Virus record (IMG/VR): IMGVR_UViG_3300030497_000009 | Length of the DNA: 64,000 nt | DNA from: a virus | Strand: one strand, 5' to 3' | Shown: in pieces, positions 34,687 to 44,466 of the stretch | Layout of the letters: every line of letters begins with the position of its first letter | How positions within the stretch are numbered: position 1 is the first letter of the stretch | Notes under the pieces: generated by a model | Databases searched by the model: none | Told to the model about the DNA's origin: nothing | The model's input: only the letters and a program-made list of their open reading frames with translations | Translations under genes and position numbers: made by a program

Positions 34687-36171
34687 ATGGCTCTAAGACC
34701 TAGAGAAGGATATATGGACTTTGATCCAGCAACTAAACAAGCGCTTGCTGGTGAAAAAGCCTTGCTTGTTCAGACAGACACCGAAAACACCAATAAGATA
34801 TCGACACTTCAACGAAAGCTAAAAAATAAAGAAGTTGATGTTGTTGAGGATTATGGCGTGGTATTGGGTACGCTAGGAAACACAGCTGCCAAAATTCAAC
34901 AAGCCATAGATGAATGCGCACCATTGGGCATCTGGGTGCTGTTACCAAAGGGTGATTATCACCTTGAAAAATCAATTATCGCAAAAGCCGGTCTTAAGAT
35001 GTTGGTTCACAAAGATGCTAACCTCCTACGTTATCATAATGATTGTATGGTGCTCAACGGGTTATCAACCGACCTAGTTGGCCAGAGCAACATCTGGATT
35101 GAAGGTGGAAACTGGAATTGTCGTGGTAACTTAATTAATGATGATGGTTCAGCCTTTGCGATGGGTTACGCTAGCAATATCACATTAAAAAACCTAAAGA
35201 TTTACAATGTAAACTTCTCGCATGGAATGGAAATCTGCGCGATAGACGGTGCTGACATCGAGTTCTGTGAAGGATACGGCTTTATTGATGCAGGAGGCAC
35301 ACGCACAACGGCTGAGTTTATTCAAATTGAACGAGGCACAAAGACTGGATTCCCATACTTTGGTTCTGGAGATAACTCTCAGTCCAAGAACATACGAGTT
35401 AAACGTTGTAAAGTTGGAGCATCTGACGTAGCCCCGTCCTTCAATGTAGGGCTGGGATCTCATGACACCCCAACGGTTACGGCTCTGGTTGGATTGCACG
35501 TTGCTGACTGCGACTTCACAAGCGCGGTTGAAGTAGGCATGACAATTAAAGGTTACACAAACGTTGTTATTGAACGTGTAAAGGCTAAAGCCAAGAAAGG
35601 CATGGAGATTTACCATGATAACGCAACTGTTACAAATGTAGTCGTTCGTGACTGCGATATCACTGGAACAGCTGGTTATGGCATTGGAATGGATGGTGTT
35701 CAGAAGGTTGTTATTGAAGCAACTAAGGTAGACGGTAGCACAAATGGTATCTATGGAACACGAGTTAAAGATGCTGATATTTGTTCAAAAACAGATATCT
35801 CAGGGCAAACAAGTGATGCAGTAGCAATCATCACGACATCGTTCAACATAAACGTTAACCGAGTTATTATCAGAAAAGCTGGAAGACACGGATTTAACTT
35901 TTATGATAATTCACAACACTATCGAGTGCGCGACTGTGAAATTTTAGATGTAGCAACAAACGTATTCAACCTAGCTGGGGCAACTACGAAGCTTATTTTT
36001 ATTACTGGAAACTTAATCACGGACACAACCCTTACAAACGTTGTTAATGCTACAGCTGGAGTGGATAAACTTTTCTTTAAAGACAACGTCTATTCTAGTA
36101 CAATTGCCACTCCGATTAGCTCAGCTGCAACCAATAGCAACGTACTAGCTTCTGACAACCAAACATTCTAA
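34687..36171 (+). CDS. Right-handed beta-helix tailspike/depolymerase candidate
   Basis: VDVVEDYG...AAKIQQAID...LLPKGDY...NIWIEGGNW; HGMEI, EFIQI, GLGSH; many parallel-beta repeats. Confidence 0.82.
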   Translation: MALRPREGYMDFDPATKQALAGEKALLVQTDTENTNKISTLQRKLKNKEVDVVEDYGVVLGTLGNTAAKIQQAIDECAPLGIWVLLPKGDYHLEKSIIAKAGLKMLVHKDANLLRYHNDCMVLNGLSTDLVGQSNIWIEGGNWNCRGNLINDDGSAFAMGYASNITLKNLKIYNVNFSHGMEICAIDGADIEFCEGYGFIDAGGTRTTAEFIQIERGTKTGFPYFGSGDNSQSKNIRVKRCKVGASDVAPSFNVGLGSHDTPTVTALVGLHVADCDFTSAVEVGMTIKGYTNVVIERVKAKAKKGMEIYHDNATVTNVVVRDCDITGTAGYGIGMDGVQKVVIEATKVDGSTNGIYGTRVKDADICSKTDISGQTSDAVAIITTSFNINVNRVIIRKAGRHGFNFYDNSQHYRVRDCEILDVATNVFNLAGATTKLIFITGNLITDTTLTNVVNATAGVDKLFFKDNVYSSTIATPISSAATNSNVLASDNQTF

Positions 36172-36183
36172 GGAGTGATACCA

Positions 36184-37749
36184 ATGACTTTACGCTTAAA
36201 CCCAGATGATTTCTCATTTGACGTTGCGAGTCAACAAGAGTTAAATGAGAATAGCAAAAACGTTGGTGAAGACATCAACATGTTTTGGACTCCTCCAACG
36301 CAACCTGCCATGCCTTGGGGTTCAAATGGTGTTCCAGCTGACAGAAACCCTGAAGGGTTCATTAACGGTCTATACGAGCCGTTGAGAACAGCCAACCCAG
36401 ATTACATTACACGTTCAGTCATCGGTAAAGACCAAAGTGGAACGCATAATATCTATGAATATGTGTTAGCTCCGAAGAACTACACAAAGACAGTTATTGT
36501 CTCAGCCGGCACGCATGGTAACGAGTATACTGCTTCATTCGCGTTAGCTCGTATCATTAACCATTTAGTTAATGACTGGGAAGACAGCCCTGTGTTAACA
36601 GCTGTTAGACGTAGCGTGCGCCTGATTGTACTACCAATTAATAACCCGTGGTCTTTCGCCAACAACAAACGCCAGAACGTAAACGGTGTAGATATCAACC
36701 GTAACATGGATTATTTATGGTCTTATATCACAGGATCGTCTTATCAAGCTGGTGCGACGTATTATAAAGGTACAGCACCGTTTTCAGAGAAGGAGTCACA
36801 ATACTTGCGAGATACCTTTGTGAAGTACAGTGACGCGCTGTCGTACATCGACTTTCACACAATCAATACTATCAAGGCAGACCACATTGTGTTCACTCCA
36901 CGTTATCGTTCACAGTACCGCAGTATTTTCAACGATACAATTAGTCAGCTTTTTAAAACTGGTAATCGTATTGTTAACGGAACGACAGCCATGCCTACAG
37001 TTGCGTGTCACGCTGCTGTAACGCACAACATGACTACAGCAAACCCTGAGTGGTACAACGGAAACTATGAAGCTGACACGCGTGGTAGCATAGAAATGAC
37101 GGAAGCCGTTAAGTGGTTTGGTAATGTTGTAATGAAAGCTTGTGCGTTACAATATAAAACGACTCAAATCGACGAATCAGCTCCGTTTGCTAGACTTCTT
37201 ACTTATGATAAAGCAACGACACCTACGCCTATTACAGTGACTTCTGCTGTGTACGCAAACGTTGATCATGGTGTCCATGACATGACAATCAACCGTCATG
37301 GTATCTTAGAGGTGAGTGGGCGTGTAAAGATTACTGTTTCAGCAACCGCAACTGTTGGTTTAAATCCAGTAGTTTACCAAGTTAACCATCCAGAGTTAGG
37401 ATGGACTGATGTTAAAGACAAAACTTGGAATGAAGTCGTTCAGTCTTATGCTGCTGGAACATACTATGTACCGATTAACGCACTGTTCCATGTATTTCCA
37501 GCTAACTACAACGAAGCTGGTACAAGTCGACCTGAGCAAGTTAAGCTTCGCTTACGAATGAAAACATCGACTGGCACAATCACGATAGAGGGTTGGAGAA
37601 TCTATATTAAATACATTCCAACCGAACTGGGTGAAGCAGTAAAAGTTATCGATTATACGGGATTGGAAGCACAGCCTGAGGGCACCGATTACAAACAGGT
37701 GTTCCCTGACCCAACGAAGTTTCTTACTGATAGTTCAACCGACGAGTAA
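36184..37749 (+). CDS. M14 zinc carboxypeptidase-domain protein with C-terminal beta-rich domain
   Basis: GTHGNE (HxxE), NNPW, NGVDINRN, PFSEKES, YIDFH. Confidence 0.85.
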   Translation: MTLRLNPDDFSFDVASQQELNENSKNVGEDINMFWTPPTQPAMPWGSNGVPADRNPEGFINGLYEPLRTANPDYITRSVIGKDQSGTHNIYEYVLAPKNYTKTVIVSAGTHGNEYTASFALARIINHLVNDWEDSPVLTAVRRSVRLIVLPINNPWSFANNKRQNVNGVDINRNMDYLWSYITGSSYQAGATYYKGTAPFSEKESQYLRDTFVKYSDALSYIDFHTINTIKADHIVFTPRYRSQYRSIFNDTISQLFKTGNRIVNGTTAMPTVACHAAVTHNMTTANPEWYNGNYEADTRGSIEMTEAVKWFGNVVMKACALQYKTTQIDESAPFARLLTYDKATTPTPITVTSAVYANVDHGVHDMTINRHGILEVSGRVKITVSATATVGLNPVVYQVNHPELGWTDVKDKTWNEVVQSYAAGTYYVPINALFHVFPANYNEAGTSRPEQVKLRLRMKTSTGTITIEGWRIYIKYIPTELGEAVKVIDYTGLEAQPEGTDYKQVFPDPTKFLTDSSTDE

Positions 37750-37778: not shown

Positions 37779-37829
37779 TTGACAAATCTGAACATTTATG
37801 TTGAACTGTGTTACATAATCAGTTATATT
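37779..37829 (+). promoter_or_regulatory. SigmaA-type early promoter (copy H)
   Basis: TTGACA(37779), TTGAAC(37801)-N17-TATATT. Confidence 0.65.
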
Positions 37830-37873
37830 TGAATTGTGAGATGAATATAGTATATCGAAAGGGGAGAGAAATT

Positions 37874-38383
37874 ATGAAAAAGCTTTTGGTTGCTGGGGGT
37901 ATTATCGGTATGTTGACAGCTTCGGTTATCGGCTGTGGTAAGGAGGAGGTTCCTGATACGTCGCAAACGGTTATGACAGGGGAAGAGTCACCTGAGGAGT
38001 TATTTAATGACTATCACGAGCCTGCTATCAGAATGTTTTTCGACGTATTTGAAGAATACGACCAGTTATTTGGGGATGCTGCCAACAACCCTGCGCTGTT
38101 GCAGGACGAGAGCTGGTATGCGTCGGTAGGTAGAAAAACTGGAGAGCTAGAATCAGTTGTAGAGCACCTAGAAGAGTATGACGGTCCTGTTCCTGATGAG
38201 TACCAAGATGCGTATGCTGAGCTTCAGGAAGGTACAAAGTACCTACGAGAAATGGTTGACAAAACGTCTTGGGCTGTAGCTCCACTAGCAGAAGGCAAGA
38301 GCGTTCGTTACGACCAACTAGTTGAAATTAGTGATAACTGCTATAACTATATGTTGACTGCAAAAGAAAAGTTGGATTATTAA
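37874..38383 (+). CDS. Lipoprotein with helical domain
   Basis: Signal MKKLLVAGGIIGMLTASVIGC; start reassigned to ATG 37874. Confidence 0.8.
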   Translation: MKKLLVAGGIIGMLTASVIGCGKEEVPDTSQTVMTGEESPEELFNDYHEPAIRMFFDVFEEYDQLFGDAANNPALLQDESWYASVGRKTGELESVVEHLEEYDGPVPDEYQDAYAELQEGTKYLREMVDKTSWAVAPLAEGKSVRYDQLVEISDNCYNYMLTAKEKLDY

Positions 38384-38399
38384 GAAGGTTGTACAGTCG

Positions 38400-38433
38400 G
38401 GAGTAGTTTCTGACGCTCTCGCTTTCTATTAAT
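38400..38433 (+). promoter_or_regulatory. Phage-sigma (middle-like) promoter
   Basis: GGAGTA-N18-TTCTATTAA. Confidence 0.55.
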
Positions 38434-38462
38434 AGAAAGTTAAATCTGAGGAGGAAATTTAT

Positions 38463-39314
38463 ATGGATTATGTAGTAGCTATGTTGGGTATGACTGGAAT
38501 GACAGCGATGGTTGTGTTTGCGGTGATGTGTTTGGTAACAGCGATTCAGAAAAAGAAAACTTGGAAGCGCTGGGCAAAGTGGTTTGGTATTAGCACGGGT
38601 GTTGTAATCGTAATGATGTTAATTCCGACTGGTGACAAAGAAGTTGCTAGCAACGATATCGATACAGAAAAGATTGCTAAAGTAGAAGATAAGAAAGAAA
38701 AGATTGAAACGGCTAAAGAAGAGAAGCCAAAAGTTGATAAAGAAGCTGAAGCGAAAAAGGCTGAAGAAGCTAAATTGAAAGCCGAGCAAGAGAAAGCTGA
38801 CCAAGTTAAGAAAGAAGCAGAAGAAAAAGCACTAGCCGAGAAGAAAGCCAAGGAAGATGCTGAAAAGAAGAAAGAGCAAGAGCAAGCGAAGAAGCTTAAA
38901 GAGTTAGCAGAAGCAAAGCAAGCCTATGTTGATTATTACACTCCGTTACTTTCTGATTTTGCTCAAGTTATGTACGATTTCTCTATTCACTTTACGGACG
39001 CTGGTGAAAACCCTTCAGTAATGTACACCGATGACTTCTATAAGGATACGGGCGTACTATTAGGGCGTACACAGCCGTTAATTGACAAGATGAAGAACTA
39101 TCCTGGTGAAATACCGGCTGAGCTTCAACCAAGTCACGATAAATTGATGGCTTCTATGGATGAATACCAAAAGATGGTGGACACTCTGCCTACAGCGATT
39201 GTTTCGCTAGTTGATAAACAGGATATGACTGGTATTAATAGCGTGATGCAGTACATGGGTGACGGTCAGAAGTATATGGAAGAGGGATCGGCTCTTTTGA
39301 AAGAGCTAAACTAA
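38463..39314 (+). CDS. Membrane protein: two TM helices, K/E/A-rich stalk, helical domain paralogous to 37874-38383
   Basis: Shared pattern DAxxNPxxxxDxxxY...G...Y.G..P.ExQ..xxxL. Confidence 0.75.
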   Translation: MDYVVAMLGMTGMTAMVVFAVMCLVTAIQKKKTWKRWAKWFGISTGVVIVMMLIPTGDKEVASNDIDTEKIAKVEDKKEKIETAKEEKPKVDKEAEAKKAEEAKLKAEQEKADQVKKEAEEKALAEKKAKEDAEKKKEQEQAKKLKELAEAKQAYVDYYTPLLSDFAQVMYDFSIHFTDAGENPSVMYTDDFYKDTGVLLGRTQPLIDKMKNYPGEIPAELQPSHDKLMASMDEYQKMVDTLPTAIVSLVDKQDMTGINSVMQYMGDGQKYMEEGSALLKELN

Positions 39315-39992: not shown

Positions 39993-40014
39993 TCTAGAAA
40001 CTTGTTGAACACCA

Positions 40015-40048
40015 AGGGTAAATTCTTGGTGTTTCTTCTTTTATTAGG
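40015..40048 (+). promoter_or_regulatory. Phage-sigma (middle-like) promoter overlapping an inverted repeat
   Basis: AGGGTA-N18-TTTTATTAG inside AACACCAAG...CTTGGTGTT. Confidence 0.7.
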
Positions 40049-40087
40049 TGTAAGTTACTTAAGCTACCTAATAGGAGGAAAAGAAAA

Positions 40088-40750
40088 ATGAATACTTTAG
40101 TCCAAAATAACAAAATGTCTTTAACGAAAATCGTGATGAAACACCAAAAGCGTTTACACGGTGTAGAACTTGGTTCAGCTTTATTCGACGCTGTGAAGAA
40201 CGATCCTACGCTACGACGTTACGCGGATGAGTACAACATCAAATTCGTGCGTGACATGACTCTTGATAATGAGTTTTATACGATGGTGTTTGAAGACCAA
40301 CCGGCTCGCGTATCAGACTTTAACTATGAAATTAAACACGGTGGTGCTGAAGTAGCCTTTAAACCAAAGGCAGATGAGTTCAAAAAGCTAGCTACCAAAG
40401 CTGTTAGAATCGTTGAAACGCCATCCACGAAGCCACGCCAAGAGCTTCGAAAGTATATTGGATTACGTGGTACTGTACTGCTAGACTTAGCGAACCAAAA
40501 CCAATACGTTGTAGAGTTCCCAGAGTATGGTGTAGTTGCTATCCCAGCGGTTAACGTTAAAGAAGTAGAAATGGACTTAGTAACAAGTATCTCGCTTAAA
40601 GAAGCTTATAGCAACGGTGGAGAATACAATTCTATCATGCTAGCTACCGATGCGAAGCCACACGAAATTGAAGAGTATCTAAGACAACAAAATGGTAAGA
40701 TTGACGCTATCGTTGTAACGAAAAAATACTTTCTAGCAGAGCTAGACTGA
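40088..40750 (+). CDS. Hypothetical protein
   Basis: AGGAGG RBS; phage-typical codon usage. Confidence 0.75.
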   Translation: MNTLVQNNKMSLTKIVMKHQKRLHGVELGSALFDAVKNDPTLRRYADEYNIKFVRDMTLDNEFYTMVFEDQPARVSDFNYEIKHGGAEVAFKPKADEFKKLATKAVRIVETPSTKPRQELRKYIGLRGTVLLDLANQNQYVVEFPEYGVVAIPAVNVKEVEMDLVTSISLKEAYSNGGEYNSIMLATDAKPHEIEEYLRQQNGKIDAIVVTKKYFLAELD

Positions 40751-40763
40751 GGAGGAAAATACG

Positions 40764-41297
40764 ATGTCAGTAAAAATTCCAGTAAGTGCAAAGAAAGACT
40801 TTATCCGATTGATGTTAAAAGAGGGAAATTTCAAGCGCGAAGTGAACTGGATTTTTAATTACATCTTAAGCCATGACAAACTAATCGAAAACGCAATATT
40901 TATTAATGAATCAATCCAAGAAACAGACCGAGGAATATATGCTGCTGACTTAAGAGTTGAAACTGAGAGCTTCCGTTATTACAAAGGTAGCGTAAGCACT
41001 ACCGATGCTGAGAAAGCGTTCCATGATATTCGTTTAAATCGAGAAGATAAACTGTATGTACAGGTTAAGCTTACGAGCATTATGCAAGCGAAGTTTTATG
41101 AGGTATTAGAAGATAATCCCCACCATAAAGTTTCGACGCGTGATAAGCGTAAGATGGAGCTTACAGTAAACGATTTAGAGAGACAAAACCAAAAACGACT
41201 TATCGACCACTATGTGAATAAAGCGCTTGACGAACGAAATGAAGAAGCGTTCATGGAATGGACTGCTAAATATGCTGACCTACCAAAAGCTGAGTGA
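40764..41297 (+). CDS. ypiB: YpiB/ReoY-like protein with C-terminal IDEAL motif
   Basis: KKDFIR...KRE..WIFNYILSHD.L...RG...FRYYKG.V.TTDAEKAFHDIRLN...LEDNP...VNKALDERNEEAF. Confidence 0.88.
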   Translation: MSVKIPVSAKKDFIRLMLKEGNFKREVNWIFNYILSHDKLIENAIFINESIQETDRGIYAADLRVETESFRYYKGSVSTTDAEKAFHDIRLNREDKLYVQVKLTSIMQAKFYEVLEDNPHHKVSTRDKRKMELTVNDLERQNQKRLIDHYVNKALDERNEEAFMEWTAKYADLPKAE

Positions 41298-41312
41298 AAA
41301 CTCAGCTTTTTT
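41285..41312 (+). terminator. Intrinsic terminator
   Basis: AAAAGCTGAG-TGAAAA-CTCAGCTTTT. Confidence 0.75.
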
Positions 41313-41370: not shown

Positions 41371-41610
41371 ATGTTGCCGTTGACAAAACGATATCAAGGG
41401 AGAGCAAAACTAGTCAAGCCAGGACGCTCAGCCGATTACCACCTGTGCGCACACTGTGGAACTCCATTAACTCACATTAGCCCGACGGATGGAGAGCTTT
41501 GGAGAACGAAAATGGTGAAGCTAGCTAAAATAAACGAATTAGAATTTTACTTTTGCGAGCACAGTCAACCGTGTCAGCAGAGAAGGAGGAAAAGACGAAA
41601 TGAATTATAA
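41371..41610 (+). CDS. Zinc-binding hypothetical protein
   Basis: CAHC...CEHSQPC. Confidence 0.6.
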   Translation: MLPLTKRYQGRAKLVKPGRSADYHLCAHCGTPLTHISPTDGELWRTKMVKLAKINELEFYFCEHSQPCQQRRRKRRNEL

Positions 41611-41761
41611 CTGTTGCATCTGTGGGAGAATTATACCTAAACACTCAACCGATTATCTCTGTGACCGATGCGAGGATAAGTATAGCGTATACGAAGATGA
41701 TGAACCAACTGTAAAGCCAATTAAGAAACGATCCGGAAAACGTTATAAGGGGGATGAATGA
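41600..41761 (+). CDS. 53-aa zinc-finger protein
   Basis: CCICG...LCDRC; AGGAGG RBS. Confidence 0.6.
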   Translation: MNYNCCICGRIIPKHSTDYLCDRCEDKYSVYEDDEPTVKPIKKRSGKRYKGDE

Positions 41762-42122
41762 AATGTATCCAAACGGCTACGTGAGTGGTAGTATTAAACG
41801 CCTACGTAAGCGACTTCAAGAAAACCCTGATAAAGCGAAAGCCTTTAAAGAGGAAGTGAAGAACACAGTTGCTTTTGGTCTTGAAGACTTTGATAAGCGT
41901 TTACGACGTGGTGAAGTTAAAATTGATAACGTCAGCGATTACGAAAAAATGGTTAAGCTTGGCTTGCTACTATATGGGGAAGCTACTGAGAAAATTGAGC
42001 ATACGACTGATATTGAGGAAGTCTCTACGGAGCAATACGAAGCAGTCAAAGACACACCAGAATTTGAAGAAGTAATGCGCAAGTTAGCTCTAAGCATGAA
42101 CGCACAAAATGAAGAGGGTTAA
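41754..42122 (+). CDS. Putative terminase small subunit
   Basis: Helical protein upstream of terL; RRGEVKIDNVSDYEKMVKL pattern recalled from the gene in this position in SPO1/Twort-like phages. Confidence 0.45.
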   Translation: MNEMYPNGYVSGSIKRLRKRLQENPDKAKAFKEEVKNTVAFGLEDFDKRLRRGEVKIDNVSDYEKMVKLGLLLYGEATEKIEHTTDIEEVSTEQYEAVKDTPEFEEVMRKLALSMNAQNEEG

Positions 42123-42538: not shown

Positions 42539-42826
42539 ATGAAAAGATACTTCAAGATTACGTGTAAAGCTTGTAACGTGGACATGTGGGAAGTTACGGG
42601 CGCAGTCAAACATAAAATTGGTACAGAAAATATTCTTATCTCAAACGCACCATTCTTCTTTTGTGAGACTTGTGGTGATGTAGCATATAGAAAAGGGTTG
42701 GGCATTACTGACATACTCGTTAAGGCGTACAGAGACGGTTACAACACAGTTATCTTCGAGGAAGAAGACTTAGCCTATCTTAACAACCCAAAGAGTGGTA
42801 GAAGCGAAACTGAAGGGGATGAATGA
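42539..42826 (+). CDS. YgiT-type zinc-finger protein
   Basis: CKAC...I.N.P...CETCG. Confidence 0.7.
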   Translation: MKRYFKITCKACNVDMWEVTGAVKHKIGTENILISNAPFFFCETCGDVAYRKGLGITDILVKAYRDGYNTVIFEEEDLAYLNNPKSGRSETEGDE

Positions 42827-44466
42827 CCATGAACGAACAGGCGCTTTTAGAGCGAATGAAGAAAGAGATACCTGAGCTTTATGCGCTCCAGTATCACACT
42901 ATACGTGGAAAGCCGTTGACGTTTCACATTAAAAATAAAAATGAAAAGAAAGCTCGTGGACATCGTCCTTGGCAGACAGCCATCATTAACGATGCACACC
43001 CAGATAAAATCGTGCGTAAGTCACGTCAGTTGGGTTTATCAGAAATGGGACTTATCGAGAACATTCAGTTTGCGGACGTGAAGAATAACGTTAAAACGAT
43101 GTTAACGTTCCCACGTAACCGTCAGCTGGTTGACTTTGTAAAAACCCGTATGAACCCTGTATTCGATAATAACCCTTACTTTAAATCAATACTTGACCCT
43201 GCGATGAACTCTATTGAGGTTAAAAAGATTCGTGATAGCTTCTTAATGTTCCGTTCAGCATGGGGTGGAGCGTTGGGGGAGGGTGCGGATATTGACTTTC
43301 TAGCCTTCGATGAATATGACCGTATGTCTGATGGCGTAGAATTAGCCTTCCAAGAGTCTATGAAATCTTCTGCTTACGGATGGTTGCGTCGTTGGTCTAC
43401 ACCTACGATCCCCGGACGAGGGGTTGACTTACAGTTTGGTAAATCCGATCAACGTTTCTACATGCATAAATGTGAAGCTTGTAACGAGTGGCAGGTTATT
43501 AATGCTGAGGATAACATCTTCCAATACAAGAAAGATGGTATTGACTTGATGACTGACGAGATTCAGGATGGCACGTTCGGATTCGTTTGCTCTCACTGTT
43601 CTAAGCCTTTAGACCGTTGGTACAACGGGGAATGGGTTGCGAAGTATCCTGACCGAAAAGCTATCCGTGGTTATCACATTTCACAGCTTAATGCGGTGTG
43701 GATTTCTGCCGATGACGTTAAACGACGTGAATTAAAATACACCTCTAAACAGCTATTCTATAACTACGTTATTGGAGAGCCGTATGCCAGTGAAGGTTTG
43801 GTAATTACAGAGGACGATATCTTAGGCAGTAAGCGATTCGAAACGCGCGTACACAGCCGACAGAGCTACAAGAAAACCGTTGTAGGAATTGACTGGGGTA
43901 TTCGAAACTGGTGTCTAGTGCTAGGTATTAAAGAGGATGGCCAAGTTGATTTGCTAAACCTCTTTATGTTCCCTGATAACCCACAGAAACCTCTGGAGCC
44001 GGTTGGAATGATTGCGGCAAGTATTAAGCCTTACGATCCTGATTTAATTATTGCGGATGCTGGGTTTGGTGCTGACCGGAATACGTATCTAATGCAATTA
44101 TTTCCTGGTGTTACTTGGGCTTGTCAGTACAATACGTATAAGGGTAAGTCAAAACCACAAGATTCATGGAACGAACAAGGTAGAATGATAAACGTTGATA
44201 AAACAGTTAAAGTTCAACGTATGCTTCATACTGTAAAAGGGCGCGGTGTGGGGATGTGGCGTATGGACGATGACCTCATGATTTTCACCAAGCATCTTAA
44301 AAACGTTCGTGTGATGGACGAAGAGGACGATGGGATTGTTTATCAGGTAGCTACTCGAATTGGTGACGACCACTGGAGTTCTTGTTTGGTCTACGCACTA
44401 ATTGGCGTTGAAAAATTAAAAGGTATCTACCTTCCAAAGCAGGATTTCAATTTCGATTTCATGTAG
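42823..44466 (+). CDS. terL: Terminase large subunit (SPO1/Twort-like)
   Basis: YHTIRGKPLTF, HRPWQ, KSRQLGLSE, FDEYDR, RRWSTPTIPG, CGKP-like CSKPLDRWYNGEW, GIDWG, GDDH. Confidence 0.95.
   Translation: MTMNEQALLERMKKEIPELYALQYHTIRGKPLTFHIKNKNEKKARGHRPWQTAIINDAHPDKIVRKSRQLGLSEMGLIENIQFADVKNNVKTMLTFPRNRQLVDFVKTRMNPVFDNNPYFKSILDPAMNSIEVKKIRDSFLMFRSAWGGALGEGADIDFLAFDEYDRMSDGVELAFQESMKSSAYGWLRRWSTPTIPGRGVDLQFGKSDQRFYMHKCEACNEWQVINAEDNIFQYKKDGIDLMTDEIQDGTFGFVCSHCSKPLDRWYNGEWVAKYPDRKAIRGYHISQLNAVWISADDVKRRELKYTSKQLFYNYVIGEPYASEGLVITEDDILGSKRFETRVHSRQSYKKTVVGIDWGIRNWCLVLGIKEDGQVDLLNLFMFPDNPQKPLEPVGMIAASIKPYDPDLIIADAGFGADRNTYLMQLFPGVTWACQYNTYKGKSKPQDSWNEQGRMINVDKTVKVQRMLHTVKGRGVGMWRMDDDLMIFTKHLKNVRVMDEEDDGIVYQVATRIGDDHWSSCLVYALIGVEKLKGIYLPKQDFNFDFM

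Follow-up and report, generated by a model that had tools for sequence, protein, structure and literature searches.

ReoY is needed for the turnover of MurA by the ClpCP protease, and its mechanism is still an open question in the field. A gene for a protein of this family lies in a 64,000-nucleotide stretch of viral DNA (the window), which raises the question of what a phage would do with a copy of its own: hasten the loss of MurA, block it, or put the protein to another use.

A ReoY/YpiB-family protein in a phage genome

The gene and the parts of its product are the following:

40764..41297, plus strand: phage ReoY/YpiB-family gene, 177 amino acids plus stop, an intact open reading frame with an ATG start (Pfam, NCBIfam, PHROG and PDB matches, AF2)
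40791..41099, plus strand: ReoY_N (UPF0302) domain, residues 10–112 (Pfam PF08864)
40998..41039, plus strand: family signature TTDAEKAFHDIRLN, residues 79–92, containing H87 (alignment to the cellular consensus)
41154..41273, plus strand: C-terminal helical hairpin, residues 131–170, with IDEAL (139–170) inside it, the predicted ClpC-docking surface (Pfam PF08858, AF2, complex prediction)

Both domains of the family are recognized in the phage protein, ReoY_N (PF08864) with 81.6 bits against a cut-off of 27 and IDEAL (PF08858, residues 139–170) with 26.4 bits against a cut-off of 22, and the same Pfam scan found no MecA domain at an E-value of 0.01 or better. The NCBIfam model NF002965, 'ReoY family proteolytic degradation factor', covers the protein end to end (E 5.7e-42) with 143.4 bits, which falls short of the equivalog cut-off of 182; the control proteins scored 313 bits (a cellular ReoY, P0004), 237 bits (the Listeria protein P0014) and 232 bits (gp577 of phage G). 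By its domains, the phage protein is a member of the ReoY/YpiB family and, by the NCBI criterion, not an equivalog. Its sequence also matches PDB entry 3do9, the crystal structure of Bacillus anthracis BA_1542 (E 2.5e-27), and PHROG 15120, a group of phage proteins without assigned function (E 6.3e-22, residues 4–168 on profile positions 3–160 of 161). An AF2 model built from 46 homologues has a mean pLDDT of 86.7 and places helices at residues 125–156 and 160–171 in the C-terminal part. In a Foldseek search with this model, the significant PDB matches were of only two kinds, chain B of 9a7e (E 9e-16, TM 0.69), an entry which bears the title 'Integrative model of CLPC-YPIB by crosslinking MS and deep learning', and again 3do9 (E 1e-14, TM 0.64). 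These domain, profile, PDB and fold matches to the ReoY family are far beyond chance, and the first-pass annotation, which had described a full-length YpiB-like protein with TTDAEKAFHDIRLN and an IDEAL-type C-terminus, is borne out by Pfam, NF002965, 3do9 and AF2/Foldseek alike.

The two-domain architecture, length, fold, signature and H87 are common to the phage protein, Listeria monocytogenes ReoY (Lmo1921) and B. subtilis YpiB. What sets the phage protein apart from these is its low identity (42% or less), its sub-equivalog score, a VNKALD motif, a deletion in the linker, its encoding by a phage, its pairing with an ORFan and its location outside the ypiA-ypiB-ypiF gene order. This order, in which ypiB is flanked by the TPR gene ypiA and the DUF2487 gene ypiF, is present at the cellular locus L019 and absent at the window and its relatives.

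The setting of the gene is that of a phage contig of 156,357 bp. The gene for the large terminase (42823..44466; phrog_675, 618 bits) begins 1.5 kb downstream of the ReoY gene, an ORF at 41754..42122 is small-terminase-like, and the portal and other phage families are present elsewhere in the window. At the DNA level no close relative was found among deposited phages, with only 63 bp of the terminase gene matching SP8 and Adastra. The DNA comes from a plant metagenome, and partial matches in rhizosphere, root and soil sequencing runs name no habitat. The nearest cellular ReoY proteins, at 37–41% identity, are all from Bacillaceae (Neobacillus, Mesobacillus, Metabacillus and Bacillus), and the host is therefore probably a soil member of this family; the phage itself is probably a large one of Bacillus type, associated with soil or plants. 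Homologues of ReoM (IreB) and of SPO1 Gp53 were absent from the window and the other phage loci in tblastn searches, and IreB and MurA are not among the 25 of 36 Pfam families listed for the window.

Besides the ReoY gene, the window holds a number of host-like accessory genes, among them two for TerD and one for TerC, two for sigma factors and those for SpoIIID, PhoH and a poly-gamma-glutamate hydrolase; a NUDIX protein and a staphylococcal-nuclease-like protein can be added to its host-like regulator and stress genes. A GT2 glycosyltransferase, a PARP-type enzyme and Fpg are also encoded. ClpCP has a part in Bacillus developmental decisions, and a link between the ReoY gene with its partner and the sporulation-type genes is conceivable. 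The set of envelope-directed enzymes is unusually rich: at 34687–37749 a beta-helix protein (494 amino acids) precedes an M14 zinc carboxypeptidase-like protein (524 amino acids), and the poly-gamma-glutamate hydrolase, an M15 peptidase and a peptidoglycan-binding (PG-binding) domain complete it. At 37808–39314 two adjacent envelope proteins, a lipoprotein-like ORF of 191 amino acids and a membrane protein of 283 amino acids with a Lys/Glu-rich coiled segment, are paralogous and share a C-terminal domain of about 100 residues (24% identity, E 3e-12).

Recurrence in phages, divergence and selection

The first-pass annotation knew of no described phage ReoY. This still stands as far as the literature is concerned, since our search found no description of one, but the gene itself is recurrent: it is carried unannotated by at least five sequenced phages and is represented by PHROG 15120. 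Homologues were found by tblastn in Bacillus phages G (gp577), Nachito and YungSlug and in the Lysinibacillus phages LysYB1/2, where all are annotated as hypothetical and sit among small accessory genes. In IMG/VR contigs a ReoY gene adjoins an antirepressor and an AAA protein (L008) or lies near Mom (L009), in two prophages of isolates (L012 and L013) it is found between a DnaC-like loader and a dUTPase, and in L014 it lies near a Dam methylase and a ligase. The proteins of phage G, Nachito, YungSlug, LysYB1/2 and PHROG 15120 have the same architecture as the window's protein, but belong to separate lineages of the tree and have no counterpart of the 220-residue partner protein described below. 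Among the other full-length phage or phage-context copies tested, all nine have kept both domains. Parsimony on a tree of the family with 163 members asks for eight changes among the 13 copies labelled as phage, and branches with good support force at least four, which makes at least four separate origins in phages; reoY has therefore been captured repeatedly by phages of Bacilli. Some of these copies have stayed much nearer to the cellular proteins, as exemplified by gp577 of phage G with 54% identity, and equivalog-level scores of 221–232 bits occur among them.

A further seven tblastn matches, six in records named 'Listeria phage LM 4-x' and one in 'Enterococcus phage Efs', are unannotated contigs flagged UNVERIFIED_ORG and were not counted as phage. 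In the one examined, L004 (OR846791.1), a YpiA-like TPR gene lies directly upstream of reoY as in bacterial chromosomes, and because of this context and the missing annotation all seven were set aside. Sister records of L004 are OR848193, OR848187, OR846798, OR847717, OR848750 and OR846630, with 'Enterococcus phage Efs 1-1-1' among the group; such unverified records can inflate counts of 'phage' homologues. A separate observation concerns a 4-kb metagenome contig, L102, in which two ReoY-like genes of 176 and 184 codons, both with UPF0302 and IDEAL domains, stand in tandem (positions 901–2056) beside a YodL-like and an HNH-repeat gene and lack the ypiA/ypiF surroundings. The contig probably belongs to a further phage in which ReoY has been duplicated.

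The window's copy has moved far from its cellular relatives, to none of which it is more than 42% identical. Its clade, with a support of 100%, comprises the IMG/VR contig L005 (90% identity) and the metagenome contigs L015–L018 (86%) and stands on a stem branch of 1.12 substitutions per site; outside the clade, the nearest cluster in a set of 1.84 billion representatives reaches just 38% identity. Measured against two relatives, dN/dS is 0.11–0.16 at a dS of 0.43–0.65. The gene is strongly diverged yet under purifying selection.

The changes are unevenly spread over the protein. In TTDAEKAFHDIRLN, 13 of the 14 residues match the cellular consensus, and H87 is kept and aligned; an H87Y exchange in Listeria ReoY was isolated as a loss-of-function suppressor (PMC7286690), and H87 is missing from some other phage copies. 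Nearly all positions that are invariant among 95 cellular ReoY proteins have been retained, including K10, F13, R25, E26, W29, F46, F70, K74, the block E83–N92, N118, P119, L155, D156 and F163. Non-conservative substitutions are found both in the N-domain (W16L, Y21G, C27V, H45I, P55D and P69S) and on the C-terminal helices (A131M, S138L, F142N, D152N, L166W and L170Y), and four residues are deleted from the linker relative to cellular members. The motif that gives IDEAL its name reads VNKALD in place of IDxALD, with L155, D156 and F163 kept. On the helices predicted to face ClpC, seven of 11 well-conserved positions are altered (A131M, L135V, S138L, F142N, I151V, D152N and L170Y).

Many host-like genes are found in large phages of this kind, and the ReoY gene might be one more of these, acquired by chance and without a role in infection. 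We consider this highly improbable, given the low dN/dS over the dS range stated above, the conservation of the leader, ribosome-binding site (RBS) and terminator described in the next section, and the repeated acquisition and retention of the gene in unrelated phages.

A two-gene cassette with an ORFan

The ReoY gene is the second gene of a cassette with these further elements:

40007..40046, plus strand: intrinsic-terminator-like hairpin with an 11-bp stem and a following U-rich tract, which closes the upstream unit and forms the 5' border of the cassette (scan and fold)
40047..40087, plus strand: 5' leader with a 7-bp inverted repeat (ATTAGGT/ACCTAAT) and an RBS, AGGAGG, at 40073..40078 (sequence and relatives)
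40088..40750, plus strand: ORFan of 220 amino acids, the upstream partner of phage ReoY (no Pfam or PHROG family, no confident fold)
40749..40755, plus strand: RBS of the ReoY gene, GAGGAGG, 8 nt before the ATG and overlapping the ORFan stop codon (sequence)
41285..41312, plus strand: intrinsic terminator with an 11-bp stem, a GAAA loop and a U run, overlapping the ReoY stop codon (fold)

The hairpin at the 5' border spans 40007..40034 ahead of its U tract, has a folding energy of -13.7 kcal/mol (z -4.1, with none of 200 shuffles as good) and is identical in two relatives, and the terminator behind ReoY, with its hairpin at 41285..41310 ahead of the U run, reaches -15.1 kcal/mol (z -4.9) and is conserved in relatives. 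In three phage relatives the 80-nt cassette leader is the same to the letter (100% identity), with a dS of 0.3–0.9 in the coding DNA of these relatives. The hairpin formed by its inverted repeat is weak (z -1.8), and no sigma-70-like promoter was found in the leader, such sites being no commoner than in shuffled sequence. The two genes are separated by 13 nt, which suggests that they are co-transcribed and possibly also coupled in translation. The genes of the paralogous envelope proteins mentioned above lie a short way upstream of the cassette. On its downstream side, two small overlapping ORFs of 79 and 53 amino acids with paired-cysteine, zinc-ribbon-like motifs (41371–41761) separate the ReoY terminator from the small-terminase-like gene, with a TATAAT box before the first.

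The 220-residue protein has no Pfam or PHROG match, no tblastn match in 50,697 phage records and no usable match in the protein atlas, and its AF2 model (pLDDT 49) is too poor for a fold search. Among 5.8 billion proteins only four relatives were found, and a dN/dS of 0.13–0.22 indicates purifying selection. SPO1 Gp53, which is of about the same size, was considered as a relative and showed no relationship to it (hhalign probability 0.4%). Wherever the DNA downstream of the ORFan is visible, namely in the window lineage, in L101 and in L103, a ReoY-like gene follows directly, so that the pairing recurs in three lineages at 35–39% identity; between L101 and the window the ORFan is 35% and ReoY 38% identical. 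The ReoY of L101 reaches the equivalog level (221 bits), and the pairing is therefore older than the divergence of the window's copy. The partner is absent from all other phage ReoY loci and from the cellular reoY loci examined. Adjacency conserved over such a distance suggests that the ORFan and phage ReoY work together, and this partner gene, which the first-pass annotation had passed over, may be the real cargo-side component. In L103, a contig of 1.6 kb, the ReoY_N domain after the ORFan homologue runs in frame into a beta-ketoacyl-synthase fragment at the contig end (742–1560); this is most likely an assembly chimera and not a fusion protein.

Predicted docking on ClpC and candidate functions

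A link to ClpC, proposed in the first-pass annotation from the known role of the family, is backed by a controlled complex prediction. Full-length B. subtilis ClpC, folded without an alignment and used as a stand-in from another species for the ClpC of the host, was combined with phage ReoY (46-row alignment) in three runs, together with three controls. The ipSAE of phage ReoY with ClpC was 0.64 in each run against 0.00 for the best control, a mark that in the calibration of the tool was attained by 58 of the 80 solved complexes and by two of the 110 mismatched pairs. At least 57% of the contacts are common to the runs, and the partner has a pLDDT of at least 77. In the predicted interface, residues 131–170 of the phage protein face the ClpC N-domain (5–143) and the tip of its M-domain (431–443, including 436), with further contacts at phage residues 48–49 and 108–117 and the rest of ReoY_N outside the interface. 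The family-invariant IDEAL residues L155, D156 and F163 contact ClpC 436–443 in the model. The C-terminal IDEAL hairpin of phage ReoY is thus predicted to dock on the N-domain and M-domain tip of ClpC. Given the ClpC-YpiB model 9a7e, this result may reflect family likeness and not binding by the phage copy itself.

The predicted footprint coincides with the binding sites of MecA, whose fold and family are unrelated to phage ReoY. MecA binds ClpC via the N-domain and the M-domain and cannot do so without F436, a residue that also keeps ClpC together in its inactive resting state (PMC5699869). Listeria ReoY binds ClpC, ClpP and ReoM in two-hybrid assays, and ReoM binds MurA (PMC7286690). A phage protein acting at this site has been described in SPO1, a large Bacillus myovirus, in which the adaptor-like protein Gp53 binds ClpC at the MecA/McsB site, in competition with the adaptors of the host, and modulates ClpCP (Mulvenna et al. 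2019, PMC6873191). We propose Gp53 as a functional model for phage ReoY, by analogy. The comparison showed no relationship in sequence (hhalign probability 0.3%), and the two differ in that Gp53 is without a cellular homologue, whereas phage ReoY is a captured host cofactor.

Hence, we hypothesize that the phage-adapted ReoY is a xenogeneic adaptor or co-adaptor for host ClpCP, which would reset the substrate choice of the protease in favour of the phage; we give this reading about an even chance. The C-terminal IDEAL hairpin would dock on the host ClpC at the adaptor site around F436, that is, at the MecA site where the inactive resting state is held together, and the N-terminal ReoY_N domain with the signature and H87, inferred to be the cargo or ReoM side, would be left free to present cargo. 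Cargo could be delivered via the host ReoM, in which case it would be MurA, joined in B. subtilis by GlmS and IlvB, or via the co-transcribed 220-residue protein. ClpCP would in this way be drawn off host adaptors, and the phage would probably plug into and redirect the host protein-degradation machine. That host adaptors are outcompeted, which cargo is carried and what follows for MurA are inferred parts of this scheme. The recurrence of the gene in at least four independent phage lineages, among them temperate phages with an antirepressor, a DnaC-like loader or a dUTPase as its neighbour, supports the adaptor reading, and as both domains are kept in the full-length phage copies, a protein that bridges ClpC and cargo fits better than a one-domain decoy. 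Weighing against the adaptor reading are the score below the equivalog cut-off, the seven altered positions on the ClpC-facing helices and the overexpression result from Listeria given below.

The first-pass interpretation is supported in part, in the homology and the link to ClpC, and for MurA it stays conjectural in effect and direction. For the two outcomes considered in the first-pass annotation, faster loss of MurA and a dominant-negative block, the flow of precursors matters. GlmS makes the precursor of UDP-GlcNAc, and MurA consumes UDP-GlcNAc. The first-pass argument that a faster loss of MurA would free UDP-GlcNAc and so feed the GT2 is ambiguous and cuts both ways, because ReoY is in B. 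subtilis also needed for the turnover of GlmS and IlvB (PMC7286690), and an agonist would lower both MurA and GlmS. In Listeria, overexpression of the native reoY remained without phenotype (PMC7286690), and this speaks against an effect of an additional copy by dosage alone. The abundance of YpiB drops in rich medium in B. subtilis (bioRxiv 10.1101/2020.08.28.272336), so YpiB could be limiting in fast-growing hosts.

The alternative of a dominant-negative decoy, which would occupy ClpC or titrate ReoM without productive delivery and thereby block ReoY- and adaptor-dependent proteolysis, is in our view unlikely. It would stabilise MurA and GlmS, keep up the supply of wall precursors and UDP-GlcNAc during infection and shield phage proteins from ClpCP. 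Docking at the shared adaptor site, as predicted, would suit such a protein, as would the non-conservative changes in the helices that face ClpC and on the surface of the N-domain (W16L, Y21G, C27V, H45I and P55D) and the loss of H87 in some other phage copies; a simple agonist gains little where extra native ReoY is without phenotype, and a putative sugar-polymer synthase encoded by this phage would benefit if precursors were kept in supply. However, one domain would suffice for a decoy, yet all full-length phage copies examined keep both, and in the window lineage H87 and the signature of the N-domain have been preserved, with the gene under purifying selection. Moreover, SPO1 gains slightly from the presence of ClpC and not from its loss (PMC6873191).

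A function independent of ClpC, for which the ReoY fold and the 220-residue partner would have been reused, for instance in replication or packaging or as a regulator of another host target, is quite improbable in our estimate. The strong divergence with its stem branch of 1.12 substitutions per site, the score below the equivalog threshold, the occurrence of the partner gene in phage-like contexts only and its absence from cellular reoY loci, and the location just upstream of the packaging genes are all in keeping with it. Yet the invariant IDEAL residues have been kept, the predicted ClpC interface is confident and separated from the controls, and other phage copies, including the ORFan-paired one of L101, score as true equivalogs (221–232 bits).

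Within the preferred reading, that of an adaptor or co-adaptor for ClpCP, a more specific and rather doubtful version is that the ORFan and phage ReoY together form a self-contained, two-part xenogeneic adaptor. The ORFan would replace the host ReoM as the substrate selector, escape the PASTA-kinase phospho-gate and hand a host target to ClpCP, which might be MurA or an entirely different protein, for example a regulator of defence or of development. If true, this would be the first phage system to have captured one half of a host adaptor pair and invented the other half.

The gene is best described as that of a host ClpC cofactor which the phage has captured and which has since diverged, housed in a two-gene cassette specific to phages; it belongs to a recurrent and unstudied group of phage ReoY genes. 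The phage copies represent natural separation-of-function variants, in which the H87 motif and the IDEAL core are kept and other surfaces are rewritten, and the comparison of the two points directly to the surfaces of ReoY that are worth mutating. Should the phage protein indeed dock where MecA does, then ReoY is itself likely to be a genuine adaptor of ClpC, and phages would have reached the ClpC hub at least twice, with Gp53 by invention and with ReoY by capture. Both ClpC and ClpP serve as targets of antibiotics, and in Gram-positive bacteria the tolerance to beta-lactams and fosfomycin is set by the ReoM/ReoY/MurA axis. A phage protein that tunes this axis would be of practical interest.
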